Of a stretch of 64,000 bases of DNA, positions 3,891 through 60,711 are shown piece after piece. Both the position numbers and the translations under genes were made by a program. The stretch is from NCBI GenBank assembly GCA_946613265.1, contig CAMOFK010000001.1, forward strand, positions 22,753 to 86,752, given 5' to 3'. The notes below the pieces were generated by a model that worked only from the letters and a program-made list of their open reading frames with translations, was not told where the DNA came from and made no database searches. Within the stretch, counting starts at the first letter, position 1; each line of letters starts with the position of its first letter. This DNA comes from an uncultured Verrucomicrobiota bacterium. Its GTDB lineage: Bacteria; Verrucomicrobiota; Kiritimatiellia; RFP12; UBA1067.

Positions 3891-4505
3891 TCACAATTCG
3901 ACTTTCTGCTTCTTGCCTGCCGCCGTCCACTTTGAATTGGAAGGCTCGCAAACGACTTTCACCGGCTTGCCGTCGTGGAGCGCGCGTACGATCACCCCCA
4001 TTAGGCGCGTGCCCGACTTCGTGGAGTGCGTGCCGCCGCCTCCGCCGCCGCGCCTCCTGCGGCGCTGGAAAGTCTTTGTCGTTTCCGTCGTCTGCACGAT
4101 CGTCGGCGAAGAGAAGGAGAATTTCTGCGTTGCCGGCAGGTCTTTGCGAAATTCGTATTTGCCGATTTCGATGCGGCCGGCGATTTCATCCTTCGCGCCT
4201 TTGGCGCCGATGTCGCGCGTGATGAAATACGCTTCCACGGTTATTGCGATGGTCTCGTCGCCATGCGGTGTGCATCCGACTTTCCCTTCGTAGTCGTAGT
4301 CGGTTCGCTTCGTCTCGATCTCCGTTCGGGCGCGTCGCGTTTTCTTGCCGTCCGTCTTGGACTTGGAATTCGATGCATCCGGGCGCTCGACTTTGAGGCT
4401 GACGGACATGGGGGCGTCCGACGCGCGCGCCGGCGTCGCCGCGAAAGGCGCGAAGGCCGCGAAAATGGCCGCGCATAGCGCGATGGCTGTACTTGTGTGT
4501 TTCAT
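3891..4505 (-). CDS. Hypothetical secreted protein with an R5-G6 low-complexity tract
   Basis: 204 aa. Signal peptide MKHTSTAIALCAAIFAAFAPFAATPARA. Tightly packed between eda and the GHL10 gene, with its stop 10 nt before the next start. No family recognised. Confidence 0.55.
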   Translation of the reverse strand: MKHTSTAIALCAAIFAAFAPFAATPARASDAPMSVSLKVERPDASNSKSKTDGKKTRRARTEIETKRTDYDYEGKVGCTPHGDETIAITVEAYFITRDIGAKGAKDEIAGRIEIGKYEFRKDLPATQKFSFSSPTIVQTTETTKTFQRRRRRGGGGGGTHSTKSGTRLMGVIVRALHDGKPVKVVCEPSNSKWTAAGKKQKVEL

Positions 4506-4566: not shown

Positions 4567-5199
4567 CTAGCGCGCCTTCAAGGCCGCGGCTTCGCTGGCG
4601 AGGCGCTCGATCGCCGCCCAGTCGCCTGCCGCCACGGCATCCTTCGGCGCGATCCACGTGCCGCCGCAGCATATTATCTCCGGCACGGCGAGATAGTCGC
4701 GGACGTTCGCGGGCTTTACGCCGCCCGTCGGCATGAATTTCACCCCCGTCCAGCGGAATGCGCCAAGCAGATCCTTTATATATTTGACTCCGCCGGCGGA
4801 TTCGGCGGGGAAAAATTTCACGAGCCGGCAGCCAAGCGAAAGCGCCTGCGAAAGTTCCGACGCCGTGGCGACGCCAGGACAGAACGGCATGCCTAGACGA
4901 TTGGCGGCTTTGACGATTTCCGGGTCGAAGCCGGGCGCGACGCACGCTTGCGCGCCGGCCGCTTTCGCGGCGCAGAGCTGTTCGAGCGTAAGCACCGTCC
5001 CTGCGATAGTCGTCGCGCCTTCGACTTCGCGGTTGATTTTCGCGATCGCCTCCGCGGCGCAGGACGTGCGGAAAGTGATTTCGAGAACTGGCAGGCCGCC
5101 TTTGACGAGCGCGCGCGCGAGCGGCACGGCTTTCTCGATGTCTTCGATCACGATGACAGGAATTATTCCCGCCGCCCCCAAAGTGTCAATCATGTCCAT
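4567..5199 (-). CDS. eda: KDPG / 4-hydroxy-2-oxoglutarate aldolase
   Basis: The internal start MDMIDTLGAAGIIPVIVIED at 5199 is preceded by AGGAGA. About 210 aa with GGLPVLEITFRT and KFFPAE..GG..Y...L...F....FMPTGGV, typical of Eda. The 117-codon upstream extension in the ORF track is Arg-rich junk. Confidence 0.9.
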   Translation of the reverse strand: MDMIDTLGAAGIIPVIVIEDIEKAVPLARALVKGGLPVLEITFRTSCAAEAIAKINREVEGATTIAGTVLTLEQLCAAKAAGAQACVAPGFDPEIVKAANRLGMPFCPGVATASELSQALSLGCRLVKFFPAESAGGVKYIKDLLGAFRWTGVKFMPTGGVKPANVRDYLAVPEIICCGGTWIAPKDAVAAGDWAAIERLASEAAALKAR

Positions 5200-5237
5200 T
5201 CCGATTTTCTCCTGTTTGCAAATCAAGCGCCGGCGCG

Positions 5238-5711
5238 TCAGAGCGCCAGCAGGTCTTCGCGTGTGAAGGCGCAAGGCGCGTTCGTCGCCGCCGGATCGGC
5301 GGCGATCTTCTCCGGCTTCGCGGCCGCCTGCGAATGCGGCAGCGGCGTGTACGGGAAATCCACGTCGCCCTGCCTGACGACGCCGCGCCGTTCGCCGATT
5401 TGCGCGACGCATCCCGTTTCGCGGGGTATTGCGCCGAGCGAAAGATCGGCGCGCAGGGCGGACATGCCGTCGCGCGCGGTTTTTATCGAGGCGCGCGCCG
5501 CCTGCACTGCGGCGTCCGCTTGCTCGTCCGGAAGCGAAATGAACGCGCACGAGGCGCGCGCGCTTTCCGCCGGGGCTTCGCGCGCCTTGAAAGCTAGCGC
5601 GGCGTACGGGAACGCCGCCGCTATGCCGAGAGGCGCGGCGAGTACGAGCGCCAGCGAGTAGATTTCGTTGCGCAGATGGCGCTTCGGCTTGTATAGATGC
5701 GTTTCCGCCAT
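5238..5711 (-). CDS. Hypothetical membrane-anchored protein downstream of exbD
   Basis: 157 aa with a single N-terminal TM (IYSLALVLAAPLGIAAAFPYAALAF). It occupies the position where TonB/TolA-like partners usually sit, but no TonB C-terminal signature is recognised. Confidence 0.45.
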   Translation of the reverse strand: MAETHLYKPKRHLRNEIYSLALVLAAPLGIAAAFPYAALAFKAREAPAESARASCAFISLPDEQADAAVQAARASIKTARDGMSALRADLSLGAIPRETGCVAQIGERRGVVRQGDVDFPYTPLPHSQAAAKPEKIAADPAATNAPCAFTREDLLAL

Positions 5712-5775: not shown

Positions 5776-6252
5776 TCAGGTTTCGTCGTGGTGGCGCTGG
5801 GCGAAGAGTATCCGCTTGATCCCGCCTGCGCGCGCCGTCGCCGCGAAATTCATCAGTTCTCCGGCGGAAACCCGCCTGTCCGCAAGCACCAGGAGAGCAT
5901 CTTCTTTCAATTTCGCGGCGCGCTCGCCGAGCTGCTCGCGAAACGCCTCCATCGATTGATCGTCGCCAAGCAGAAAACGCGCGTCGTCGAAAAACACCAG
6001 CGTCTCGCGCGAGGTCGGCAAGAGAAGCGCGACGAGCGAAGTCTGCTCGCCGTCGGCGAATTCGCGTTCCGGGAGATCGAAGAGCACGCCTTCGGCGATC
6101 GAGAGCGTGCCGCCGAGCAGATAAAGTGTCACGACCAGCATGCAGAGCGTCAGCCACGGCGCCGCGGCGACGAATGGCCGCAGCCATGCGATGTCATGGC
6201 CGCGCAGCGCGCCGGCGTCGCGCACGCTCCAGCCCCAGCCGCGCTGCGTCAT
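5776..6252 (-). CDS. exbD: Biopolymer transport protein ExbD/TolR
   Basis: 158 aa, one TM, then the ExbD-type periplasmic domain (LVLADRRVSAGELMNFAATARAGGIKRILFA). Its ATG overlaps the exbB stop (ATGA). Confidence 0.85.
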   Translation of the reverse strand: MTQRGWGWSVRDAGALRGHDIAWLRPFVAAAPWLTLCMLVVTLYLLGGTLSIAEGVLFDLPEREFADGEQTSLVALLLPTSRETLVFFDDARFLLGDDQSMEAFREQLGERAAKLKEDALLVLADRRVSAGELMNFAATARAGGIKRILFAQRHHDET

Positions 6253-11808: not shown

Positions 11809-11852
11809 TATTTTCCTTGATGCGCGGCGCCGGGCAGTCTCCTCGCGCCCGA

Positions 11853-11882
11853 TTGACGCCACGGCGTACGGAATGCTATAAT
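11853..11882 (+). promoter_or_regulatory. Sigma-70-type promoter (TTGACG, 18-nt spacer, TGCTATAAT) for the kinase gene
   Basis: The -35 TTGACG lies at 11853-11858 and the extended -10 TGCTATAAT at 11874-11882. It diverges from the rpiB-glyA promoter. Confidence 0.7.
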
Positions 11883-11939
11883 ATGCGCAGACTTGATCCT
11901 GCAAACCCTTGTGTATTCCGCAAAAGGCTTGTCGATGCG

Positions 11940-14900
11940 ATGGATTTTGAAGACAGCGAGTTTCTAACGCCCGGCGAAACGTTCGGGAGTTTTGTCGTGG
12001 AGCGGCTCCTCGGCAAAGGCGGCATGGGGAGAGTCTATCTCATGACCGAGCGCTCCACTGGCCGGAAATATGCCGTCAAAGTGATGAAGCCGCCGGACGG
12101 CCCGACGAGGCATGCATGGAGAAAGCGCTTTGCCAACGAGGCCGCATTCGCGAAGAAGGTGCATCACCGCAATCTCGTCCGCGTGCATGACATAGGCGAA
12201 GATCCCGAGACGCAGCTCTGCTATATAATAATGGATTACATGCCTGGCGGGACACTCGCGGATTTGCTCAAGCGGCAAGGCCGCCTTGGGATCGCGGACG
12301 CCACGGCCATCGCCATACAGGTTGCAGAGGGACTGGCGGCGGCGCATGACGCCGGAATAATCCATCGCGATGTAAAACCCGACAACGTAATGTTCGATGC
12401 CGGCGGCGTCGTGCATGTCGTGGATCTCGGCGTGGCCAAGCCGACGGCGTCGGCAGGCGCCGAAACGATAACGCAGACTGGGATGATCGTCGGCACGCCC
12501 GCCTATATGGCGCCGGAGCAGATAATCGATTCCCGCAGGGTGGATGTGCGCTCGGATATCTATTCTCTCGGAATATTGCTTTTCGAGATGCTGACCGGCA
12601 CGAGGCCGTACGCGAAGCTTTCGATGCTCGAGATGCTCGCCAAGGCGATAGACGGCGAGGCGATCTGCGATGTCCGCCAATATCGCAAAAGCGTGCCTTC
12701 CGGACTCGCGCATGCGATAGCGAAGTTCTGCGCGCCGTCATTGGACGAACGCGTGCAGACGGCGCACGAGGCGGCGCGGATGCTCAAAGCGACGCTGGAT
12801 CGTCCCCGGCGCGCGAAGCGGTTGCAGCAGGCGTTGTGCATAGGCGCGACGGCACTGATCGTCGCAGGCAGCATTGCGACGATCCTCTTTTCGCGCAGCT
12901 CTGGGGGCATTGAGGAGGGCGCGCTCCGCGAGGCCGTGGCTGGCGGCAGGACGTGGCGCTATCGCGTCGAGAACGGCGAAGCGGTGCTTAGCTGCGCGGA
13001 GAGCGTCGGCGGCACGCTGGCTTGCGTATCCGGTGCGCCTGCGGGAGAGCTAGAGATTCCCGCGAGCCTTGACGGCTTGCGCGTGGCGGCGATAGGCGAA
13101 CGCGCGTTTTCCGGCTCGTCCGGAGGGGGCGTGTTTTCGCGGGTGTCGATTCCCGAGGGCTTGCGGGAGATTCACGGCTGCGCATTCATAGATTGCTCCG
13201 CGCTGGAAGAAGTGAAACTGCCCTCGAGCGTGCGGAAGGTCGGCGCGCGCGCATTCGCTGCATGCCTATCGCTGCGGCGCTTCAATGCCGCGATGTGCGA
13301 AAGCATCGACGGCTCCGCTTTCATAGATTGCCCGCAGCTTGCCGAAATCCAAGTCGATGACGCCAACAGTGCGTTTGCGGCGCGCGATGGCGCGCTCTAT
13401 ACTAAAGATTGCAGCAAGCTTGTCGCATTCCCGAAGACGCGCGAGGCGGGCGGCTTGCGCTTCGCGCGATCGCTCGAGCGAATCGGCGCTTCGGCATTCG
13501 CGTCATGTTGCTTCGAGGCGTTGCGGCTGCCTGCAGGCGTGGCGGCGATCGAGAAAGGTGCGTTCCGCAACTGCCGGCGTCTTGCATTGCTTGAACTTCC
13601 CGACGGAGTGAGAGAGTTGCAAGATGATATTTTCGATGGCTGCGAAAGCCTCGTCAAGCTCGTCTTCGACGGCGATGCACCCGCGGATGCCGCCCCTGGC
13701 GTCTTCAACGGCGCCCCCGAGACGCTGGTTATCGAGGTCGGGGAAAATGCAAAGGGCTGGGGCGGCGGGCAGGCGTTTTCGCAATTCTGGCCGGCGGATG
13801 GATATAGCGACGGTCAAAGCGGGGCGCACGCGCCGGCGGGGCGCAGAGTGCGCCGCACCGGCGAAAAGAAAGACTCCGGAGATGTGCGCGCGGCGCGCGG
13901 CGGCGCGATCCCCGCGCCTGTGCGCCTCGAGGCTGAAGGCCGCGTCTGGATGTGCCGTGAAGCGCGCGCTGGGGAGCGCGACAGGCTGGTGCTGATGGAT
14001 GTCGAGCCTGCGCCGGCCGATGGATTTGCCATTCCCGCTGCGATAGGCGGAAGGCGGATCGAGGTCGTGGAGGGCGCGCTTTTCGCGCGTTGCGCAAGAG
14101 TGACGCGATTGTCGCTTGGCGAAGGAATAGCGGCGATCCATGGCGCGGCGGCGTTCGGGGCCTGCAAGGAACTTGAGACGGTCGAGCTGCCGGCCAGCAT
14201 GAGAAAGTTGGGCGAGCGCGCTTTCGCGGGATGCGAAAAGCTCAAAGAGATTCGCGTAGCCGGCGGAAGCGGGGCTTTCAAATCTTTCGGAGGATTGTTG
14301 TACAGCGGCGATGGCACGCGCCTCGTGGCATGCCCTGCCTCGCGCGACGAAATCACTCTCGAAAAAGGAGTCGCGAAAATCGAGCCTGGCGCGTTTGCCG
14401 GTTGCCGCTGCCGGAGCATTTCTTTCGGTGAAGGCGTCTGCGACGTAGGCGCGGGGGCGTTCGAGGACTGCCGCTTGCTTCGCCGGCTAGAGTTTCCCGC
14501 GGTGCTGCGAAGTCTGGGCGAGCGGGCTTTCAAGGGTTGCACGGCGCTGGAAACAATTCGCTTCAACGGCGATGCGCCCGAATGCGGCCCCGAGGTTCTG
14601 GCGGGATGCGCGAGCACGGTAATCGTCGAAGTTATGCCTGGTTCGAAAGGCTGGATGGGCGCGGCGATCCACCGCGGAGACGCAGCGCGAATCGCGCTTC
14701 CCGATTACTGGCCGGAGAATGCAGGAGAACATTCGCGCGAAATCCGCTTGGTTGGCGAGAGCGCGGAAAACGCAGCGCTTCGCCGCGGCACGGCGTTTCT
14801 CAGAAGCGGCATGCAGCGCGGCGTCCGCGAGGCATACGACGGCATGTCCGCGTGGTTTTACAAGCCGCAGGAAGCGAAAGCCTCCGGGCCGGCGTGTTCG

Positions 14901-16466
14901 CTGGAGTCGCCGGATGGCGCGCATCCATGCGTGTGGCCGCGCAGCGTGGGCCGCATTGCGCTTCCCGTGGAGCTGGAAGGGCGGAAGGTGCGCGCAATCG
15001 GCGCGCGCGCGTTTGCGGACTGTCGCTCGCTCACGAATGTAGCGTTTCCCGAAGGGCTGGAGGAGATTCGCGCGCCTGGCGCGTTTCGCGATTGCACAAG
15101 TCTCGCGGAAATCGCCTTTCCCATATCACTGAAGAAGGTCGAGGGGGATGCCTTCATGGGTTGCAGGACGCTTGCGAAAGTCGATATCGCGCTTTGCGCT
15201 TCGCTCTCCGGAGCGGCCTTTCGCGGATGCGGCGCGCTCGCTGCGTTCGCCGTGGCGCCGCAGAATGCTGCGTATGAAATTCGCGAAGGCGCGCTTTGCG
15301 CCGCCGGCGGCAAGACGGTCATCGCGTTCCCGCGCACGGAGCGCGCAGCGCGAATCCCCGCCGACGCCGCCGTCATCGGCGAGTATGCGGCGTCGCACGC
15401 ATCGTTTTCCGGAAGGCTCGCGGTGCCTGCCGGCGTGGCGGACATCCAACGCGGCGCTTTCGAGGCCTGCACTGCGCTTGGCGGCGTGGAGTTCTTCGCG
15501 AAGACTCTGAAGCTCGGCGCGGCGGTCTTCGCCGGCTGCGAGAATCTCCAATACGCAGTCTTCCACGGCGATGCGCCGGTCGCCGCCGCCGATGTTTTCG
15601 CCGGCACGCCGCCTGGACTCGTCGTTTACGTTCCGCGCGATTCGAGAGGCTGGACGAAGCCAGGCTCCAGACGTCTCCCGGCGCGTTGGCCTGCGGGCGC
15701 AGGCGAAAATGCACGAGAAATCCGCTTCGCAGGCGAGAGCGCCGATGAAGCGCGTGCGCGCAGACTGGCCGACGATGCCGCGCGCAGCGATGAAGCGCGC
15801 ATCAGGACGTTCGCGACCGGCAGGCGGACTTGGTTCTATTCGCTCGACGAGGGCAACGCCGTCCTCGGCGCAGGCGGAACGCAGCCGTGCGTCTCGCCTG
15901 CTCCCAGCGGGCGGCTTGCAATACCTTCGGAAATCGACGGGCATACCGTCGTGGCGCTGGGCGATGGGGCTTTCGCAGGGTGCGGAAATCTCTCGGTGGT
16001 CGGCCTGCCCGCGACGCTGGAGAGAATCGGCGCGCGCGCATTTTCCGGCTGCCATTCGCTTCGCGCCGTCGAACTGCCGCCTGCATGCAAAAGCATCGGC
16101 GAGCGCGCGTTCGCCGAATGCGGCAAATTGAAGAAGGTGCGGCTGTCGATGTGCGAAGAGCTTGCGGGCGAGGCGGTCTTCGCCTATTGCCCGGCGCTTC
16201 GCGAGTTCAGCGTCGCGCGCGGCAATCCATCGTTCACAATTCTCGACGGCTCGCTGTATTCGCGCGACGCGAAATGCCTTATAGCCGCGGCCGTGCCGAA
16301 AGACGGCCGCTTCCGCGTGCGGCCGGGCGTGACGGAAATTGCGCCGTATGCGTTTTGCGGTTCCGGCGTCGTCGATGTCAAGCTTGCAAAGAGCGTCGAG
16401 AAGATAGGCGAGAATGCTTTCAAAGATGCCCGGAGCCTGCGCAGGATTCCGCAAATCGGCGAGTGA
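11940..16466 (+). CDS. Transmembrane Ser/Thr protein kinase with four extracytoplasmic BspA-type leucine-rich-repeat modules
   Basis: Hanks kinase motifs: GKGGMGRVY, AVKV, HRDVKPDN, DLGVA, GTPAYMAPE. A TM segment (ALCIGATALIVAGSIATILFS) follows. Then come four modules of about 300-330 aa starting near 12945, 13928, 14832 and 15816. Each contains repeated IP..V..IG..AF..C..L units and ends in a G..GW...WP tail. The start is chosen at 11940 (MDFEDSEF), downstream of the promoter; the ORF track begins at 11817. Confidence 0.85.
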   Translation: MDFEDSEFLTPGETFGSFVVERLLGKGGMGRVYLMTERSTGRKYAVKVMKPPDGPTRHAWRKRFANEAAFAKKVHHRNLVRVHDIGEDPETQLCYIIMDYMPGGTLADLLKRQGRLGIADATAIAIQVAEGLAAAHDAGIIHRDVKPDNVMFDAGGVVHVVDLGVAKPTASAGAETITQTGMIVGTPAYMAPEQIIDSRRVDVRSDIYSLGILLFEMLTGTRPYAKLSMLEMLAKAIDGEAICDVRQYRKSVPSGLAHAIAKFCAPSLDERVQTAHEAARMLKATLDRPRRAKRLQQALCIGATALIVAGSIATILFSRSSGGIEEGALREAVAGGRTWRYRVENGEAVLSCAESVGGTLACVSGAPAGELEIPASLDGLRVAAIGERAFSGSSGGGVFSRVSIPEGLREIHGCAFIDCSALEEVKLPSSVRKVGARAFAACLSLRRFNAAMCESIDGSAFIDCPQLAEIQVDDANSAFAARDGALYTKDCSKLVAFPKTREAGGLRFARSLERIGASAFASCCFEALRLPAGVAAIEKGAFRNCRRLALLELPDGVRELQDDIFDGCESLVKLVFDGDAPADAAPGVFNGAPETLVIEVGENAKGWGGGQAFSQFWPADGYSDGQSGAHAPAGRRVRRTGEKKDSGDVRAARGGAIPAPVRLEAEGRVWMCREARAGERDRLVLMDVEPAPADGFAIPAAIGGRRIEVVEGALFARCARVTRLSLGEGIAAIHGAAAFGACKELETVELPASMRKLGERAFAGCEKLKEIRVAGGSGAFKSFGGLLYSGDGTRLVACPASRDEITLEKGVAKIEPGAFAGCRCRSISFGEGVCDVGAGAFEDCRLLRRLEFPAVLRSLGERAFKGCTALETIRFNGDAPECGPEVLAGCASTVIVEVMPGSKGWMGAAIHRGDAARIALPDYWPENAGEHSREIRLVGESAENAALRRGTAFLRSGMQRGVREAYDGMSAWFYKPQEAKASGPACSLESPDGAHPCVWPRSVGRIALPVELEGRKVRAIGARAFADCRSLTNVAFPEGLEEIRAPGAFRDCTSLAEIAFPISLKKVEGDAFMGCRTLAKVDIALCASLSGAAFRGCGALAAFAVAPQNAAYEIREGALCAAGGKTVIAFPRTERAARIPADAAVIGEYAASHASFSGRLAVPAGVADIQRGAFEACTALGGVEFFAKTLKLGAAVFAGCENLQYAVFHGDAPVAAADVFAGTPPGLVVYVPRDSRGWTKPGSRRLPARWPAGAGENAREIRFAGESADEARARRLADDAARSDEARIRTFATGRRTWFYSLDEGNAVLGAGGTQPCVSPAPSGRLAIPSEIDGHTVVALGDGAFAGCGNLSVVGLPATLERIGARAFSGCHSLRAVELPPACKSIGERAFAECGKLKKVRLSMCEELAGEAVFAYCPALREFSVARGNPSFTILDGSLYSRDAKCLIAAAVPKDGRFRVRPGVTEIAPYAFCGSGVVDVKLAKSVEKIGENAFKDARSLRRIPQIGE

Positions 16467-25862: not shown

Positions 25863-25939
25863 CCCTAAACCGAAGGCTCTCCCGATGTCTTGCGGGCGCG
25901 GGGAGGAGCGGTAAAACCTCGAAGGTGTCGCCTTTTCAA

Positions 25940-26085
25940 GTGATACCTATCGCCCTTGCAAGTGATACCTATCGCCCCTGCAAGTGATACCTATCGCCTC
26001 ATCAAGCGATACCTATCGCCTCATCAAGCGATAGGTATCGCTTCGTCGAGCGATAGGTATCGGTCAGGGAGGGGATAGGTATCGG
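25940..26085. repeat. Array A: seven 22-bp-phased units, each a 14-bp palindrome G(T/C)GATA-CC/GG-TATCG(C/G) plus an 8-bp spacer
   Basis: The GATACCTATCG cores start at 25942, 25964, 25986 and 26008. The GATAGGTATCG cores start at 26030, 26052 and 26074. The period is exactly 22 bp. The array is intergenic. Confidence 0.95.
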
Positions 26086-26283
26086 TTTAATGGGCGACGC
26101 CTGTCACGACGCCGCCGGTACCTGCCGTTTTAATGATTCTTTCTGGCTGTTATGTCTAAAAATCAGCGGGAAGGAGCTGCACTTTTCCCCCTTTAGACGC
26201 GCAAGGCGAGCGGCCGTGCCGAGACAAGTCAAAAAACGGGCAAACTCTAGTATTTTCCCCCATGGAAGGGGGAACGCTGGTTA

Positions 26284-26292
26284 TGGTATAAT
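26284..26292 (+). promoter_or_regulatory. Extended -10 promoter (TGGTATAAT) upstream of the LMW-PTP gene
   Basis: gttATGGTATAATAcgc. It is followed by an AT-rich leader of about 115 nt before the ATG at 26415. Confidence 0.65.
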
Positions 26293-26414
26293 ACGCATTG
26301 ATGCCAAAGTATGCGTTTCATAAGGAGAAATAAAGGAAGTGTCTTCCGAAATGTTGCGACACTACATATCGTGCGAAACCCAAATAATACACATTTTGAA
26401 ATACTCCACAAAAA

Positions 26415-49274: not shown

Positions 49275-49982
49275 TCACTCCGTCGTCTCCGCCTTCGCTG
49301 TCTTTTCTGCGGCTTTCGCCGCAGCCTTTTCGGCTGCCTTCGCAGCCTTGGCGGCTTTTTCTTCTTTGATGCGGATGAAGTATTCGGAGCAGGTTTCCTT
49401 CGTGGGTCCTTCGCGCTCGAATTTGTTGTCGCCCTTCAACGAGAGATGGCGCGGGCAGAATTCGTTCGTCGTCAAATCGGCAAGCTCAAGTTTTTTTTCG
49501 TTGTCTCTGGCCGCTTCCGACCACTCTTCAAGCACGCAACCGGGGCACTTCGCCATCCCGCAAGAGTGCTTGAGGCAGTATTTGCCTTTGTACAAGCGGT
49601 CGCGGTCGCACGCCATGATGCATAGGATCTCGTCTGGATTCTTCCCGACGAGCAGATTCCGCGTGGTATCGTTTTTGATGCGCGGCATCACTCTGCCGCA
49701 GGCGTGCTTGGGGCAGTGCTTCCACACTATCTTCGTCGGAACTTCCGGCGCCGTCGCGCCGCCCTGCATCCACGGCGCGGATTTGTTCGCCTTGCCGGCG
49801 GCCCACCCGGGAATCCCGCCGATCTTCACGCCATTGTAGCAGCCTTCGGTGTGGCAGGTGTGCCGTTCGCAAAACTGGGATTTCTCCATCGCCGGCTCTT
49901 TGCATGTCGGCATTTTGCAGTTCGCGGCATGCACAAACCCGGCGCATGCGACAGCCAGCGTGACGATTGATAGCTTTTTCAT
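49275..49982 (-). CDS. Secreted cysteine-rich protein with four [FYH]-C-x-[RK]-H-x-C repeats and a Lys/Ala/Glu tail
   Basis: Start MKKLSIVTLAVACAGFVHA (signal peptide), preceded by AAAGGAGGAAAA. Motifs are FCERHTC, HCPKHAC, YCLKHSC and FCPRH. The C-terminus reads KEEKAAKAAKAAEKAAAKAAEKTAKAETTE. Confidence 0.62.
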   Translation of the reverse strand: MKKLSIVTLAVACAGFVHAANCKMPTCKEPAMEKSQFCERHTCHTEGCYNGVKIGGIPGWAAGKANKSAPWMQGGATAPEVPTKIVWKHCPKHACGRVMPRIKNDTTRNLLVGKNPDEILCIMACDRDRLYKGKYCLKHSCGMAKCPGCVLEEWSEAARDNEKKLELADLTTNEFCPRHLSLKGDNKFEREGPTKETCSEYFIRIKEEKAAKAAKAAEKAAAKAAEKTAKAETTE

Positions 49983-50049: not shown

Positions 50050-50829
50050 TTACCGCGTCGGATTCTTCGCCATGAACTCCCACGCAAAAGCTTTGTAGGC
50101 TTCCGCGCCTTTGGAGCGGGGGTCGAAAAATACGACCGGCGTGCCCATAGATGGCGCTTCGGAGACGCGGACGTTGCGGGGGATCGTCGTCTCGTAAACC
50201 TTCTCGCCGAAATGCTCGCGCACTTCGTTCATCACGTCCTGCGTGAGGCGCGCGGACATGTTCACCATCGTGAAGACTATGCCGCCAAGCTCCAGCGCCG
50301 GATTCACCGTCTTGATGCGCTCTATGGAATTGGTGATGAGCGCCAGCCCGTCCATCGCCAGAAATTCCGCTTGGATCGGGATAAGCACGCTGTCGGCGGC
50401 CGCGAGCGCCGAGGCCATGACGACGCCGAGCGATGGCGGGCAGTCTATGATGATATAGTCGAAAACGCCGGCGTCTTTGACTGGCTTCACGGCGTTGCGG
50501 ATCATTTCCAGGCGGTCTTCGCGCATGCTGAACTCAAGCTCCGCGCCGGCGAGATTCACTTCCGATGGAATGACATTGAGATTGTTCCACTTCGTAGGCT
50601 GGATCGTCTCGTCGATCGCGCGCTCGCCAGCCAGCACTCCGTACAGCGAATAGCCTGGCGTCTTCTCCAGACCGAGCGCCAGCGTCGCGTGCGCTTGCGG
50701 ATCGAGATCGACTACCAGCACCGTGCGGTGGCGCTGCGAAAGCGCCGCGGCGAGATTGACGGCGGTTGTCGTCTTGCCGACGCCGCCTTTTTGGTTGGCG
50801 ATCGCGATTGTCTTCGTCTTGATTTCCAT
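50050..50829 (-). CDS. ParA/Soj/MinD-family P-loop ATPase (orphan; no ParB adjacent)
   Basis: 259 aa. Deviant Walker A NQKGGVGKTTT, then DLDPQ and IIDCPPSLG. The start is taken at MEIKTKTIAIA (50829). Confidence 0.9.
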   Translation of the reverse strand: MEIKTKTIAIANQKGGVGKTTTAVNLAAALSQRHRTVLVVDLDPQAHATLALGLEKTPGYSLYGVLAGERAIDETIQPTKWNNLNVIPSEVNLAGAELEFSMREDRLEMIRNAVKPVKDAGVFDYIIIDCPPSLGVVMASALAAADSVLIPIQAEFLAMDGLALITNSIERIKTVNPALELGGIVFTMVNMSARLTQDVMNEVREHFGEKVYETTIPRNVRVSEAPSMGTPVVFFDPRSKGAEAYKAFAWEFMAKNPTR

Positions 50830-50833
50830 AGCT

Positions 50834-51355
50834 TCACCCGAGGAGATTTTTGCTTGCAAGTTCGCGGATGTTATGCTCGGCGGAACGCTCGACTTCGCGC
50901 CGCCAAAGCTCCACAAGCGCTATTTCCCACGGCTCGTCCACGCCGGTGAGGACGGCAGAGAAGCGGTCTCCGCTGGCGAGGACGCCGGCTTTTACGCGCC
51001 CGGCGATTTCGTCGATCGAGCCTGTAACGATCTGTTCGGAAAAGTTGTCGGATTTCAACCTGTAGCCGTAGCGCAGGATTCTCATGTTGTCGCGCAGGAA
51101 TTCCAGGTATTCGCGGGCGTCTTCTCCAAGCCCCTCCACCGTGATTTCATTGAAGTCCGGCACGATCACACGCGGCTGGTGAGCCTCCAGGCGGCCTTCG
51201 CGGATGCGTATTTTGCTGGGCGCGTCGGGCAGCTCCGAGACGAGATGGTAGTTGAGCAGCGTAGAACCGAACGTCTCGAGTTCCTGCGAAGGATAGACGA
51301 GGATCTTGACATTGCGCGCGGCATGCCAGCGATCGAAATTCGGGTCTGAACTCAT
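50834..51355 (-). CDS. Hypothetical cytoplasmic protein immediately upstream of parA-like gene
   Basis: 173 aa, acidic, with no TM or signal peptide. Its stop lies 4 nt before the ParA-like start. No family recognised. Confidence 0.55.
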   Translation of the reverse strand: MSSDPNFDRWHAARNVKILVYPSQELETFGSTLLNYHLVSELPDAPSKIRIREGRLEAHQPRVIVPDFNEITVEGLGEDAREYLEFLRDNMRILRYGYRLKSDNFSEQIVTGSIDEIAGRVKAGVLASGDRFSAVLTGVDEPWEIALVELWRREVERSAEHNIRELASKNLLG

Positions 51356-56694: not shown

Positions 56695-57048
56695 ATGAGA
56701 ATCAAGGCCACCAAAACGAACGCGGCTCAGGTGGTCGTCTCCAAGAAGACGACTCCCACCGCCGCGAAGAAGGCAAGAAAGACCGAAACTCGCGAGGTCG
56801 TTTTCACTGTTCATGCCGAACGCGGCAAGAACGTGTTCGTCGCCGGCGAGTTCAACAACTGGGATCCTACGGCAAAGAAGATGGCTTTCAAGGTCAGGGA
56901 AGGCATCTACACCGCTTCCATGAAGCTCGCCCCCGGCGACTACCAGTACAAGTTCGTCATCGACGGAACCTGGTGCGCGGATCCGGAGAATGTGAACTCC
57001 GTCGCCAACGACCAGGGCACCTTCAACTCCGTCATCACGGTCAAGTAA
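56695..57048 (+). CDS. Small CBM48 / AMPK-beta-type glycogen-binding-domain protein
   Basis: 117 aa. VFVAGEFNNWDP....M......G.Y...M.L.PG.YQYKFVIDG.W..DP is the canonical CBM48 pattern. Confidence 0.8.
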   Translation: MRIKATKTNAAQVVVSKKTTPTAAKKARKTETREVVFTVHAERGKNVFVAGEFNNWDPTAKKMAFKVREGIYTASMKLAPGDYQYKFVIDGTWCADPENVNSVANDQGTFNSVITVK

Positions 57049-57064
57049 TCGTGGCGCGCGCCGC

Positions 57065-57090
57065 GCGCATGTTTGCCATGCGCTCGTTTT
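57065..57090 (+). terminator. Rho-independent terminator of the CBM48 gene
   Basis: GCGCATG-tttgc-CATGCGC followed by TCGTTTT, 17 nt after the stop. Confidence 0.7.
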
Positions 57091-57220
57091 GCGCCCCTCT
57101 ATAGGTGGTTCTCCACTCGCAAAGCGGCACTGAACGGCCTTGATGGTTGTCCAGTGTCGTTTGCTATTGTTTTTGCGCCCCTTCGTGCAAAAACTCTACA
57201 CTTCAGAATCCGACGCTCCC

Positions 57221-57240
57221 CCCGGCAAAGCCGGGTTTTG
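57221..57240 (+). terminator. Second terminator-like hairpin
   Basis: CCCGGC-aaa-GCCGGG followed by TTTTG. With the first terminator it brackets about 130 nt of sequence with no convincing ORF. Confidence 0.5.
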
Positions 57241-57286
57241 TACCCCGCAGGATCGGCCACGTTCGCGACTTTTGTCGTATGCTCTG

Positions 57287-57432
57287 GCGACTGGAGTCGC
57301 CCGTGCTGGCGACCCTAGTCGCCTTTGCAAGCGACTGGAGTCGCCTTTGCAAGCGACTAGAGTCGCTTTGGCTCGCGACTGGAGTCGCCTTCGCAAGCGA
57401 CTAGAGTCGCCTTCGCTCGCGACTGGAGTCGC
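57287..57432. repeat. Array B: seven 22-bp-phased units, each a 14-bp palindrome GCGACT-GG-AGTCGC (variants) plus an 8-bp spacer
   Basis: Palindromes start at 57287, 57309, 57331, 57353, 57375, 57397 and 57419, a period of exactly 22. Spacers are ccgtgctg, ctttgcaa, ctttgcaa, tttggctc, cttcgcaa and cttcgctc. Confidence 0.95.
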
Positions 57433-57517
57433 CCCGGCGCGCAACCCACATCAGGAGGGACGCGCTCCCGCGCGTCCACCGGCCGCGCCGGAGCGCGTTC
57501 CTCCGCCGTTCGTGCGG

Positions 57518-58240
57518 TGGTGTAGCGCAAAGCCCCGAATGGGGCGACATATATATAGCCGGGGGTGGAGCATGCGAAGCATGCGGAACCCCCGGTATCG
57601 GCGCAAAAGTGAATCGAACCCCGAAGGGGTGGCACAATGGGTGTTCCGATGGCGTCGGAATAATTGTGCCACCCCTTCGGGGTTTGTGCGTTCTTCGAAC
57701 GCATTCCGGGGGTTGCGCGCGCGTTGCGCGCTCCACCCCCGGCTATATATGTGTCGCCCCTTCGGGGCTTTGCGGGCGTGCGATGGTGTAGCGCAAAGCC
57801 CCGAATGGGGCTTTTTTCGGTCGCGCGATGGTGTAGCGCAAAGCCCCGAATGGGGCTTTTCTCGGTCGCGCGGTGGTGTAGCGCAAAGCCCCGAATGGGG
57901 CGACACATAAATAGCCGGGGGTGGAGCATGCGAAGCATGCGGAACCCCCGGAACAAGCACGAAAGTAAATCGAACCCCGAAGGGGTGGCACAATGGGTCA
58001 CAGCGGGTGTTTCAACATCGTCGGAGCAATTGTGCCACCCCTTCGGGGTTCGATTCAATATTGCGCCTATTCCGGGGGTTGCGCGGGCTTCGCCCGCTCA
58101 CCCCCGGCTATAAATGTGCCGCCCCTTCGGGGCTTGTTTCAATATTGCGCCGATACCGGGGGGGGTGGAGCATACGAAGCATGCGGAACCCCCGGAACAA
58201 GCGCGAAAGTAAAACGAACCCCGAAGGGGTGGCACAATGC
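57518..58240. repeat. Five copies of a roughly 100-125-nt composite hairpin element in alternating orientation, plus a 45-bp triplication of its 5' module
   Basis: E1 57518-57640 (+), E2 57661-57780 (-), E3 57872-57997 (+), E4 58028-58135 (-), E5 58141-58238 (+, 5'-truncated). Shared modules are GTAGCGCAAAGCCCCGAATGGGGC, CCGGGGGTGGA[hairpin]GGAACCCCCGG and CGAACCCCGAAGGGGTGGCACAAT. Confidence 0.9.
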
Positions 58241-58270
58241 CGTGAAGGGCGATAGCTGCCCCGGGGCGCT

Positions 58271-59209
58271 TCAGACGCGATAGCCGGCGCGGCGTGCGAG
58301 TTCGCGATCATCGGCGAAAATCGCGCCTGGCGTGGTGAGAAGAGCGCCGGCTATCCCTGCGGATATGCCGACATAGATGCACTTTTCGGCTGTTTCGTCG
58401 GACATGTCTCTGCGGCCGCCCGCGAAGCGCAAATGGGTCGCGGGGTTGACAAGGCGCAGAAGGGCGATGGAATCGACCACTCGTTCTGGATCGAGAATGG
58501 GTCGAGCGCCGAGCGGCGTGCCTTCTATAGGATGAAGGACGTTGACGGGGATGGAGTCCGGCGCAATCTCCTTGAGCGTGAAAGCGAATTCGACGAGCTG
58601 TTCGTCCGTCTCGCCCATGCCGATGATGCCGCCGCAGCAGATTTCCAGGCCGAGGCGGCGGGCGGCGCGAAGCGTCGCGAGCTTGTCGGCGATAGTGTGC
58701 GTAGAGCAAAGGCGCGGGAAGAGCGATGGCGCGGTCTCGATATTGCAATGCACTCTCGACAACCCGGCGGCTTTGAGTTTGGCGAGGTCGTCTTCGGAGA
58801 GGAGCCCGAGAGACGCGCAGAGAGAGATGGAGCCATGCTCGCGCATCTTGCGCAGCGCGGCGCACACATTCTCGATTTCGCCGGGAGAGAGCGTGCGGCC
58901 GGATGTGACGATGCCGATGCGCCGCACGCCGTTGGCCTCGGCATCGGCGGCGGCGCGCGCGCATTCGTCTTCGCCGATCCAGCCATGTGCGGCGCAAGAG
59001 GTTTTCCAGTGCGCGGATTGCGCGCACCATTTGCAATCCTCGGTGCAGCGCCCGCAGCGGGCGTTGATTATCGAACAAAAGTCGAAAGTCTTTTCCACGC
59101 ACGCGAGCGTGACGGCGTGGGCGCGCTCGCGCAGTTCGGCGCGGCGCTCCGGCGCCAGCAGCGCCAGCGCTTCTTCGCGCGTTATTCCTTCTGCATCTGT
59201 TTTCCGCAT
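58271..59209 (-). CDS. bioB: Biotin synthase (radical SAM)
   Basis: Start MRKTDAEGITREEAL at 59209. Radical-SAM cluster motif CGRCTEDCKWCAQS, then HCNIET and CCGGIIGMGET. Confidence 0.9.
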   Translation of the reverse strand: MRKTDAEGITREEALALLAPERRAELRERAHAVTLACVEKTFDFCSIINARCGRCTEDCKWCAQSAHWKTSCAAHGWIGEDECARAAADAEANGVRRIGIVTSGRTLSPGEIENVCAALRKMREHGSISLCASLGLLSEDDLAKLKAAGLSRVHCNIETAPSLFPRLCSTHTIADKLATLRAARRLGLEICCGGIIGMGETDEQLVEFAFTLKEIAPDSIPVNVLHPIEGTPLGARPILDPERVVDSIALLRLVNPATHLRFAGGRRDMSDETAEKCIYVGISAGIAGALLTTPGAIFADDRELARRAGYRV

Positions 59210-59229
59210 ATTCGTGGTGCTGTTCCGGG

Positions 59230-60711
59230 CTAGGCGTTTCTGTTTTCGAGCGCCTTGGCGGCGCGATGGAAGATTTCGCGATTCTTTTCGATGAGCTGCG
59301 GCTTCTTTTTGAAGGACGCGCAAAGCGCTTCTTCGAGCGAAGCATCCGCAAGACCCGTCGCCTTGCAAACCTTCAGCGCGGCGAGCATCATCGTATTCGC
59401 GGCTTTCGGGACGCCGAATTCCTCCGCCATCGCGATCGCCGGCACGCGGCGCAGGCGCACGCCTTCCGGCGGCTCCTTCGCGACAGGCACGGTTTCATCT
59501 ACTATCACGAGACCGCCTGGCTTGACATCTGCGGCGAAGCGCTCGTACGAGGGCTGGTTCATGCAGACGAGGACGTCGGGATGCTCCACCGAGGGCGCGC
59601 CTATGCGCTGCGGGCTTACCACGACTGAGCAGGAGGCAGAGCCGCCGCGCTGCTCCGGACCGTACGACGGGAACCAAAGCGTGTGCAGATTCTCGAGGCG
59701 CGCGGCTTCCGCCACGCAAAGCCCGAGCGAGAGAATTCCCTGACCGCCATAGCCCGCGAATTTGAAGCGCAGTTCCTTGGAAAGCCGCGCCATGCCGGCG
59801 CCGCGCTCCGGCGCTCCATCGGCGGCTTGCGCGCCGGCGGAAGCGCTGAAGAGCTCTGCGCAGGAATTGAAGCGCGGCACTGGGCGCACGGCGAGTGCGG
59901 AGCCTTGCGCGGGCGCCGCCGCGCTTTCTTCGCCGCCGGCTTGCGCGGAACGGTCGCGAAAAACGCCGAGCGGGAATTCGCGCTCCATTTCGTCGATGCA
60001 GAAGCGCGCGGCCTTCTGCGCGTCCATCCTGAAATTCGTTGGGCACGGCGCGAGGATTTCCAGCATCGCGTAGCCTTTGCCGTCGCGCTGAAGCTCGAAG
60101 ACTTTGCGGATCGCGGCCTTCGCCTGCATGATGCGTTTAGTGTCTGCCACGGAGACGCGCGCGATGTAGAAGGGCGCCTGAAGCTGGTTGAAAACTTCGC
60201 AGACGTGCAGAGGGTGGCCGGTCAGCGCGGGATCGCGCCCGTAGGGAGTGGTCGTCGTCGTTTCGCCTTCGAGCGTGGTGGGCGCCATCTGCCCGCCGGT
60301 CATGCCGTAGAGCGAGTTGTTGATGAATATGCAGCCGAAGCGCTCGCCGCGCGATGCCGCCTGGAAGGCGTTGTTGAAGCCGATCGCGCCGAGATCGCCG
60401 TCGCCCTGGTAGGCGATGGTCACGGCGCCGGGGCGCGCGCGCGCCACGCCCGTGGCGGCGGCGGATGCGCGGCCGTGCGCCGCCGAAATGTGCGCGGCGT
60501 CCCAATAATAATAGGTGAACACGCCGCAGCCGACGGGATCGACGAATATCGTGCGGTCCTGCAAGCCGAGTTCGGCGCAGGCCTCCGCAACGAGCTTGTT
60601 GACGATTCCATGGCCGCATCCGGGGCAATAGTGGGTCGTGCGCGCGTGCGGCTTGCCGCAGCGCGGAAACTCCCGGTACATTCCTTTCTGCTCGATGGTT
60701 TTCATTCTCAA
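59230..60711 (-). CDS. korB: 2-oxoacid:ferredoxin oxidoreductase, fused beta (TPP-binding) and gamma subunits
   Basis: 493 aa. The N-terminal 270 aa carry CPGCGHG and the TPP motif YQGDGDLGAIGFN...INNSLYGMTGGQ. After a low-complexity linker, the C-terminal roughly 190 aa read FAGYGGQGILSLG...FPSYGPEQRGG (gamma subunit). Confidence 0.85.
   Translation of the reverse strand: MRMKTIEQKGMYREFPRCGKPHARTTHYCPGCGHGIVNKLVAEACAELGLQDRTIFVDPVGCGVFTYYYWDAAHISAAHGRASAAATGVARARPGAVTIAYQGDGDLGAIGFNNAFQAASRGERFGCIFINNSLYGMTGGQMAPTTLEGETTTTTPYGRDPALTGHPLHVCEVFNQLQAPFYIARVSVADTKRIMQAKAAIRKVFELQRDGKGYAMLEILAPCPTNFRMDAQKAARFCIDEMEREFPLGVFRDRSAQAGGEESAAAPAQGSALAVRPVPRFNSCAELFSASAGAQAADGAPERGAGMARLSKELRFKFAGYGGQGILSLGLCVAEAARLENLHTLWFPSYGPEQRGGSASCSVVVSPQRIGAPSVEHPDVLVCMNQPSYERFAADVKPGGLVIVDETVPVAKEPPEGVRLRRVPAIAMAEEFGVPKAANTMMLAALKVCKATGLADASLEEALCASFKKKPQLIEKNREIFHRAAKALENRNA

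Follow-up and report, generated by a model that had tools for sequence, protein, structure and literature searches.

Background

Short palindromic repeats occur in bacteria in several well-described forms. Here they are compared with two arrays of 22-bp units, A and B, found in 64,000 nucleotides of DNA from an uncultured Verrucomicrobiota bacterium (contig CAMOFK010000001.1, positions 22,753 to 86,752, assembly GCA_946613265.1); this whole stretch is called the window below. The repetitive extragenic palindromic sequences (REP) and bacterial interspersed mosaic elements (BIME, in particular BIME-2) of enterobacteria are extragenic palindromes at gene 3' ends and between convergent genes. REPs are imperfect palindromes of about 35 nt (20-40 nt, with a conserved head) in alternating orientation, occur in hundreds of dispersed copies and are linked to RAYT transposases of the IS200/IS605-like type. 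BIME-2 form tandem clusters of variable copy number that alternate two palindrome subtypes and two spacer types. REP and BIME sequences stabilise the 3' ends of mRNA and serve as sites for gyrase or IHF. Arrays A and B have a similar location, downstream of yggS and between convergent genes, respectively, and the alternation of TGGA and TAGA loops with a 44-bp period in array B is comparable to that of BIME-2. However, the palindromes considered here are 14 bp long with stems of 5-6 bp, no solo copies are present in 64 kb, and there is no RAYT/Y1 transposase among the window genes.

Phased repeats of similar length are also known in replication origins. The gamma-ori of R6K contains seven 22-bp iterons, and the lambda-type iterons are palindromic and lie within the O gene. 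Iterons are found in or next to the initiator gene of a phage or plasmid, accompanied by an AT-rich unwinding region. Phased units of about 22 bp are a feature that arrays A and B have in common with them, as is, for the lambda type, the dyad symmetry of individual units. On the other hand, the window has neither a Rep gene nor a DnaA box, the context is chromosomal with housekeeping genes, and the copy number varies between strains. The type Ib/II partition centromeres (parC of R1 or pSK41, parH of TP228) are, like the arrays here, short phased repeats, and they are coated cooperatively by a small dimeric protein. They directly abut the parA/parM operon and the gene of the centromere-binding protein, whereas 6.4 kb separate array B from the nearest ParA-like gene, which has no recognisable partner.

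The dRS3/NIME repeats of Neisseria and the STRR and HIP1 repeats of cyanobacteria are lineage-specific short palindromic or tandem intergenic repeats that mark plastic regions. The dRS3 units are 50-150 bp apart, STRR are non-palindromic 7-mers, and HIP1 is a dispersed octamer that does not form arrays. The outer bases of HIP1 (GCGATCGC) are the same as those of the GCGA...TCGC units described here.

The nearest described analogue, although not a homologue, appears to be BrickBuilt of Porphyromonas gingivalis, the REP/BIME clusters being the other close ones. BrickBuilt consists of tandem 23-nt units with dyad symmetry, which are strictly intergenic, often near terminators, and differ in copy number between strains; the arrays lie inside a MITE (a transposable element of the miniature inverted-repeat type) whose leader, tail and 12-bp terminal inverted repeats are shared, at about 19 loci (Klein et al. 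2015, PMC4596501). The arrays considered here are likewise intergenic and tandem, with dyad-symmetric units and strain-variable copy number, and have neither an Rfam match nor a partner gene. However, arrays A and B share no flanks, their period is 22 rather than 23, and there is no sequence homology to BrickBuilt, which belongs to another phylum.

Structure of array B

Our preferred reading, to which we assign a probability of about one half, is that arrays A and B are a lineage-specific non-coding minisatellite (variable number tandem repeat, VNTR) on the Kiritimatiellae chromosome, made of palindromic units with the potential to form hairpins. Array B consists of seven 14-bp palindromes GCGAC-N4-GTCGC that start at positions 57287, 57309, 57331, 57353, 57375, 57397 and 57419, with a step of exactly 22 bp. 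Tandem Repeats Finder assigns to it a period of 22 and 6.7 copies (score 175), and a 44-bp higher-order period, corresponding to alternating TGGA and TAGA loops, scores higher (198). The two-unit pattern GCGA-N6-TCGC-N8-GCGA-N6-TCGC has seven matches in the window, six in array B and one in array A, whereas 0.01 are expected from shuffled sequences. Thus the direct reading of the sequence, the repeat finder and the pattern counts all agree with the seven phased units reported in an initial annotation of this DNA. An additional degenerate unit precedes the array in phase and is kept in all strain variants.

None of the 70 arm positions vary in the window, whereas variation is seen at 12 of 48 spacer positions (Fisher p = 8e-6) and at 5 of 28 loop positions, the loops being TGGA in four units, TAGA in two and CCTA in one. 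The arm and spacer picture is alike in the other two strain haplotypes of the array. Thus the 8-bp spacers, initially described as conserved, are in fact its least conserved part. The suggestion that all seven sites face the same side of the helix also had to be abandoned. With the standard 10.5 bp per turn of B-DNA, 22 bp correspond to 2.1 turns, and the sites drift by about 34 degrees per unit and about 200 degrees over the array.

The initial annotation correctly ruled out a CRISPR array, a coding repeat and a microsatellite. CRISPR arrays have repeats of 23-47 bp and unique spacers of at least about 21 bp, usually accompanied by cas genes; here the repeat is 14 bp, the 8-bp spacers are interrelated, and the window contains no cas genes. 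The period of 22 is not a multiple of three, and the translated array gave no match in protein searches. None of the recovered contigs reaching past the CBM48 gene has a gene call for the only open frame over array B (57140-57910).

Variation among strains

Seven metagenome contigs from other samples (L001-L007) encode a CBM48 protein identical to that of the window. All of them carry array B at the same locus, and the number of units differs. Not counting the degenerate leader, which is always present, there are six units in L001 and L003, seven in the window and L002, eight in L005, and at least seven in L004 and L006, whose contigs stop within the array. All strains have the first two units in common, and the interior turns over. 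One recovered contig, from the metagenome-assembled genome (MAG) GCA_002363575.1, matches the window exactly over all 487 nt that it covers downstream of the CBM48 gene, the array included.

The segment of about 100 nt that joins array B to the first of the palindromic modules following it (window 57433-57540 versus L001 10718-10850) is replaced by unrelated sequence in L001 and L003. Thus the 3' edge of the array is a candidate strain-level hot spot of indels or recombination. The CBM48 gene is followed by no more than 277-677 nt in all contigs L001-L007, which stop within the array or the modules, and these repeats systematically break short-read assemblies of this organism.

Array A and its relation to array B

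A second array with the same architecture and copy number, noted by the initial annotation about 31 kb away, is indeed present. Array A is located about 31.3 kb upstream of array B, downstream of yggS and approximately 340 bp upstream of a low-molecular-weight (LMW) phosphatase gene, and has seven units with a period of 22. The central dinucleotide is CC in the first four units and GG in the last three. As it flips between units 4 and 5, array A consists of two inverted half-arrays. The 64-kb window contains these two arrays and no solo units.

The cores of arrays A and B are related by two double substitutions that preserve pairing: pair 5-10 is C-G in array B and T-A in array A, and pair 6-9 is T-A and A-T, respectively. 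In the set of 22 distinct units, 94% of cells pair and the observed covariation score was reached by no shuffle; since units within an array copy each other, this represents about two evolutionary events. Such compensatory changes in the arms are predicted by base-pairing, but not by recognition by a single sequence-specific protein.

Array A has the pattern of old edges and a homogenised interior that is typical of minisatellites. Array A is bracketed, in phase, by a right half-unit and a degenerate unit, both of the B type (Table 1), and therefore the A-type core probably arose inside a B-type array and was then homogenised there. Comparison of the flanks of the two arrays by blastn demonstrated that only the unit junction GTCGCC-TTT(G/T)CAA-G is common; there is no common leader, tail or terminal inverted repeat.

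Each unit is able to form a hairpin with a 5-bp stem and a 4-nt loop, as the initial annotation had it. In the predicted fold of a single strand, RNA or DNA, each whole array forms one long hairpin in preference to seven small ones. The hairpin of array A is about 150 nt long, owing to the inverted orientation of the CC and GG halves, with a predicted energy of -99.9 kcal/mol (z = -10.9) on the plus strand and -93.9 kcal/mol (z = -11.2) on the minus strand. The respective values for array B are -120.6 kcal/mol (z = -6.7) and -123.9 kcal/mol (z = -7.0).

Related species

The closest other species have CBM48 or YggS proteins 79-82% identical to those of the window. They retain the left-hand gene order mutS, an unknown gene, a divIC-like gene and the CBM48 gene, but the right-hand neighbours differ in each of three related genomes, and the spacers are short. 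The CBM48 gene, followed by bioB in the window, is followed by a tRNA gene and then the MGS/AICARFT gene in L024, and by a convergent Tricorn protease gene after 103 bp in L027. Similarly, yggS is followed by the LMW phosphatase gene in the window, by a YgjP/SprT gene after 19 bp in L033, and by the PRPP synthase gene after 100 bp in L034. There are no 22-bp palindromic arrays in about 60 kb of DNA of these relatives, where the gene order ends exactly at both loci and leaves no syntenic site to compare. Thus both arrays sit at synteny breakpoints (57049-58270 for array B, 25863-26414 for array A), and, since the relatives lack the array and have other right-hand neighbours, the arrays appear to be species-level features.

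The intergenic spacers of L024, from a related member of Kiritimatiellae, are filled with tandem arrays of 7-9-bp units, including TCCCACAA (8.5 copies), CTCATCA (12.7 copies) and CAAACTCTT (7.6 copies). These arrays, at positions 1-139, 1857-1924, 2687-2985, 4010-4139 and 5924-5991, resemble STRR repeats or invertons, and some of them form inverted pairs around a short core. In the region 2687-2785, ACGCAGAG-type 8-mers make up a near-perfect 25-nt inverted repeat (24 of 25 positions pair), the two halves of which enclose an AT-rich core of 49 nt. Given these arrays, repeat-rich spacers seem to be a habit of this lineage.

A proposed palindromic minisatellite

The minisatellite reading was chosen because each of the known systems, that is, iterons, partition centromeres, CRISPR, REP/RAYT and BrickBuilt-type MITEs, differs from the arrays in at least one defining feature, whereas everything in the general definition of a minisatellite or VNTR is observed: head-to-tail non-coding repeats of at least 10 bp, polymorphism of six, seven and eight units, and degenerate edges. 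Thus the arrays are a new family within a known kind of bacterial repeat.

The following mechanism may be suggested. The inverted repeat of 5-6 bp in each 22-bp unit, and likewise the array as a whole, would allow single strands exposed during replication to fold into hairpins. These would promote replication slippage and unequal exchange, so that units would be gained or lost, often in 44-bp steps, and the interior of the array would be homogenised. Hairpin-templated repair would copy a change in one arm to the other, so that the arms would stay complementary while the loops and spacers would drift. Such quasipalindrome correction is a mutational mechanism established in E. coli. The same correction could replace cores in a compensatory manner, transforming the B-type GCGAC/GTCGC into the A-type GCGAT/ATCGC. 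The arrays would persist at sites where they do little harm, that is, downstream of genes, behind terminators, and at convergent or newly made intergenic junctions; array B would be tolerated because the junction DNA that it occupies behind terminators is non-essential. If the arrays affect the cell, for example as a read-through barrier, a terminator or a recombination hot spot, this would probably be a by-product of the structure. A dedicated function would then be absent, and a dedicated sequence-specific partner protein would not be required.

Several observations weigh against this interpretation. Invariant arms with variable spacing bases are also expected from a dimeric protein binding GCGAC half-sites. 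The loops are fairly uniform (mostly TGGA), which is not demanded by structure as such. The covariation between the arrays comes down to about two evolutionary events. The presence of only two arrays with no solo units in 64 kb leaves room for a small set of dedicated sites. Array A is identical in all three strains compared (the window and two others) and thus is not hypervariable.

If the arrays are indeed minisatellites, they could serve as a VNTR marker by which to follow the strains of this uncultured species of Kiritimatiellae, which occurs in metagenomes of digesters and of the gut type. This would also account for the breaks of short-read assemblies at this place, as the seven recovered contigs end in or just past the repeats. 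Palindromes that are kept perfect by compensatory changes, with no evidence of an RNA or protein partner, would call for caution when covariation is used to claim structured RNAs or binding sites. The location of both arrays at breakpoints fits hairpin-forming repeats that mark or promote rearrangement junctions.

A possible protein-binding platform

The explanation that survives best among the alternatives, although an unlikely one, is that the arrays are cis-acting platforms for a dimeric DNA-binding protein, with one dimer per 14-bp palindrome and cooperative coating of seven sites about two turns apart. Possible roles are those of a centromere-like, nucleoid-structuring, insulator or iteron-like site, with A and B representing two specificities or tolerated changes of inner base pairs. 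Variation affects the spacers and the central 4 bp but spares the half-sites GCGAC/GTCGC, and both arrays have exactly seven units in exact 22-bp phasing. However, a period of 22 bp gives the sites no common helical face, the copy number differs among strains, and the sampled relatives have no arrays, which in the window sit at synteny breakpoints. Further, A and B would need different specificities, yet they are related by pairing-preserving changes.

The gene content of the window does not provide a partner. Scanning of about 50 open reading frames (ORFs) with gene-like codon composition (Pfam, NCBIfam, PHROG-guided) assigned housekeeping and glycan-degrading functions, the products including MutS, BioB, YggS, DnaJ, ArgG, SHMT, a sulfatase, GH2 and GH95. 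Rep, ParB, ribbon-helix-helix and helix-turn-helix proteins, other recognisable DNA-binding regulators, transposases, integrases and Cas proteins were all absent from this set. One observation in favour of a platform is an orphan gene of a ParA-superfamily ATPase, at a distance of 6.4 kb to array B and of 24 kb to array A, flanked by genes of two proteins of unknown function (Table 1). The latter have no match to ParB, ribbon-helix-helix or helix-turn-helix families, and there is no parS nearby. In the entire window, parS (TGTTTCACGTGAAACA) has a single match with three mismatches, inside yggS, which is at the chance level. Thus ParABS or a plasmid centromere may be rejected. The same applies to a replication origin or terminus, as the window lacks a Rep gene, has no match to the DnaA box TTWTNCACA, and has positive GC skew throughout, with no switch.

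Another point in favour of a platform is that palindromic iterons of this geometry do exist. The viral contig IMGVR_UViG_3300036406_000764 (L023) contains at positions 5180-5290 4.5 units of 22 bp, GCGAAG-NN-CTTCGC, preceded by a GGTATCAG repeat (4.5 copies). The array lies inside the replication-initiator gene (PHROG 16167, E = 2e-48), at residues 134-170, just past the conserved N-terminal domain. This arrangement is similar to lambda O/ori, and these are genuine palindromic iterons, but, as the example demonstrates, they come with their initiator gene. A tblastn search of the window with the L023 initiator gave nothing, so there is no Rep remnant. Thus, of the initial proposal of a cooperative array of dimeric proteins, such as iterons or a partition centromere, the geometry is sound in general, whereas the context of arrays A and B, with no partner gene, is not supportive.

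In a more specific version, the arrays would be dedicated docking platforms for an unrecognised dimeric DNA-binding protein of Kiritimatiellota, with seven dyad sites nucleating a cooperative filament and with the A and B cores as co-evolving specificities. Such a filament could work like a centromere of the chromosome, delimit domains between convergent transcription units or form a topological barrier. We consider this version doubtful, less likely than both the general platform and the RNA explanation considered below. A protein-binding array, if real, would be a sign of a new system of chromosome organisation in a phylum that has been little studied.

Similar arrays in other genomes

When one genome per species was scanned for three GCGA-N6-TCGC units with a period of 22 bp, 14 loci were obtained across diverse phyla, none of them in the species of the window. 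The palindrome extends to at least 5 bp in 9 of the 14 loci, compared to about 1 in 4 expected by chance. The same GCGAC....GTCGC arms are present at four loci, two in an Alloprevotella MAG and one each in Terrimicrobiaceae and Kineosporiaceae MAGs. As both the arms and the period were forced, the scan demonstrates the recurrence of the design, but not that 22 bp is special. At most of these loci the neighbours examined are unrelated housekeeping genes, and the look-alike arrays of other phyla have no neighbouring gene in common, which again does not favour a protein platform. Three of the five Bacteroidales arrays lie between convergent genes.

Arrays of 3-5 units were observed, among Bacteroidales, in Porphyromonadaceae UBA7332 (L008, L019), the Alloprevotella MAG (L011, L021) and Tannerellaceae (L016), and, within the Planctomycetes-Verrucomicrobia-Chlamydiae group, in Terrimicrobiaceae (L017) and Phycisphaerales (L014). 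In UBA7332 the half-sites GCGAAG, GCGACC and GCGATG appear to be shuffled between units. A scan of viral sequences with the degenerate 22-mer of the initial annotation gave one chance match and no array. In JGI metagenomes, a scan for two consecutive CAAG-type junctions produced only two weak non-palindromic look-alikes.

A possible functional RNA

Next in likelihood, and also improbable, is a functional RNA element that ends the transcript coming from upstream. If transcription of the CBM48 gene ran on into array B, or that of yggS into array A, tandem stem-loops or a long duplex would result. By analogy with the REP/BIME mRNA stabilisers, this structure could be an obstacle to 3' exonucleases, a terminator between convergent genes or a target of RNase III. 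Both arrays are indeed downstream of plus-strand genes, the predicted folds are strong, the window contains an RNase III gene, and the Bacteroidales look-alikes, too, adjoin the 3' ends of genes or lie in spacers of convergent genes. It also matches RNA structure that the stems are conserved and the loops variable, and that there are compensatory pairs and some variants compatible with G-U pairs. However, these wobble-compatible variants show no strand bias (about three favour the plus strand and about two the minus strand), and thus nothing points to an RNA from one particular strand. Both strands fold equally well. Further, array B is preceded by two terminator-like hairpins, and the array is not conserved in relatives. 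A known RNA family may be dismissed, since the Rfam matches of the arrays are limited to sub-threshold generic hairpins (miRNA precursors), none above chance.

GGA loops, which might hint at a CsrA sponge, are confined to array B. A sponge of the CsrB/RsmZ type was rejected: UGGA loops occur in four of the seven units of array B, whereas the loops of array A are ACCU or AGGU. No promoter-like site was found near array B, and the terminator-like hairpin is upstream of it, not downstream.

Genomic context

The window is chromosomal DNA of a Kiritimatiellae bacterium. It has a GC content of 61% and no blastn similarity to plasmids and phages, and the best-named homologues of the flanking CBM48 protein are from Kiritimatiellae MAGs. 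Array B lies in a gene-free spacer of 1.2 kb between the convergent CBM48 gene and bioB, which confirms the gene-free region of the initial annotation, and its flanks are GC-rich. The coordinates of the main features are given in Table 1.

Table 1. Arrays A and B and neighbouring features of the window
Feature	Positions	Strand	Description
Array B core	57287-57432		7 x 22-bp units (14-bp palindrome plus 8-bp spacer); 44-bp higher-order repeat on top
Degenerate eighth (leading) unit of array B	57265-57286		GCGACTTTTGTCGT; GCGAC TTTT GTCGT plus ATGCTCTG; in phase
Array A	25940-26085		7 x 22-bp units (starts 25940 to 26072); core G(C/T)GAT-A(CC/GG)T-ATCGC
B-type right half-unit, left edge of array A	25918-25939		GTCGCC at 25927 plus spacer TTTTCAA(G); in phase
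Degenerate B-type unit, right edge of array A	26094-26107		GCGAC GCCT GTCAC; in phase
CBM48 gene (left flank of array B)	56695-57048	+	117-aa glycogen-binding CBM48/AMPK1_CBM protein; stop codon 238 nt before array B
First terminator-like hairpin	57065-57083	+	T-rich tail; downstream of the CBM48 gene
Second terminator-like hairpin	57221-57235	+	CCCGGCAAAGCCGGG, then TTTTGT; 30 nt before the array's first unit
Palindromic modules	57503-58260		separate repeat family; nested long palindromic MITE/REPIN-like modules filling the remainder of the CBM48-bioB spacer
bioB-like gene (right flank of array B)	58271-59368	-	radical SAM and BATS domains; convergent with the CBM48 gene
Orphan ParA-superfamily ATPase gene	50050-50829	-	AAA_31, E = 1e-56; below every NCBIfam cut-off
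Neighbour of the ParA-like gene	50834-51355	-	173-aa protein, no family match
Neighbour of the ParA-like gene	49275-49982	-	235-aa protein, no family match

Neighbouring palindromic modules

The modules between array B and bioB include 79-nt copies at 57561, 57917 and 58161, a perfect 22-nt inverted pair AACCCCGAAGGGGTGGCACAAT / ATTGTGCCACCCCTTCGGGGTT and, at 57769-57901, a 45-bp tandem repeat in three copies. They have no copy elsewhere in the window. Their Rfam matches are sub-threshold only, such as Acido-Lenti-1 at 57739-57769 and 58094-58134 (19-20 bits, with a cut-off of 37).

As array B directly adjoins this MITE/REPIN-like cluster, one might think of the array as an internal minisatellite of a composite mobile element that moved together with the modules. 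In another strain the segment joining the array and the modules has been exchanged for other sequence, contigs from metagenomes end within this region, and BrickBuilt has the same unit size and dyad symmetry. This explanation is the least probable of those considered so far, because array A has no palindromic modules. Besides, nothing beyond the unit is common to arrays A and B, be it a leader, a tail or terminal inverted repeats; there is no transposase gene in the window, and no target-site duplication is evident. The lack of a common leader or tail speaks against a BrickBuilt-like composite MITE, and the absence of solo units in the 64-kb window makes a REP-like dispersed repeat less likely.

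Other observations

An extended -10-like sequence TGGTATAAT is located at 26284-26292, upstream of the LMW phosphatase gene. In L024, a gene and a tRNA gene have a similar TGGTATAAT and a plain TATAAT upstream of them, and this sequence similarity suggests that the TGGTATAAT-like form is a common promoter form in this lineage. The ORF 11817-16466 (plus strand) encodes a 1549-aa protein of unusual architecture, in which six LRR_5 repeat regions of the BspA type occur together with a Ser/Thr kinase domain.

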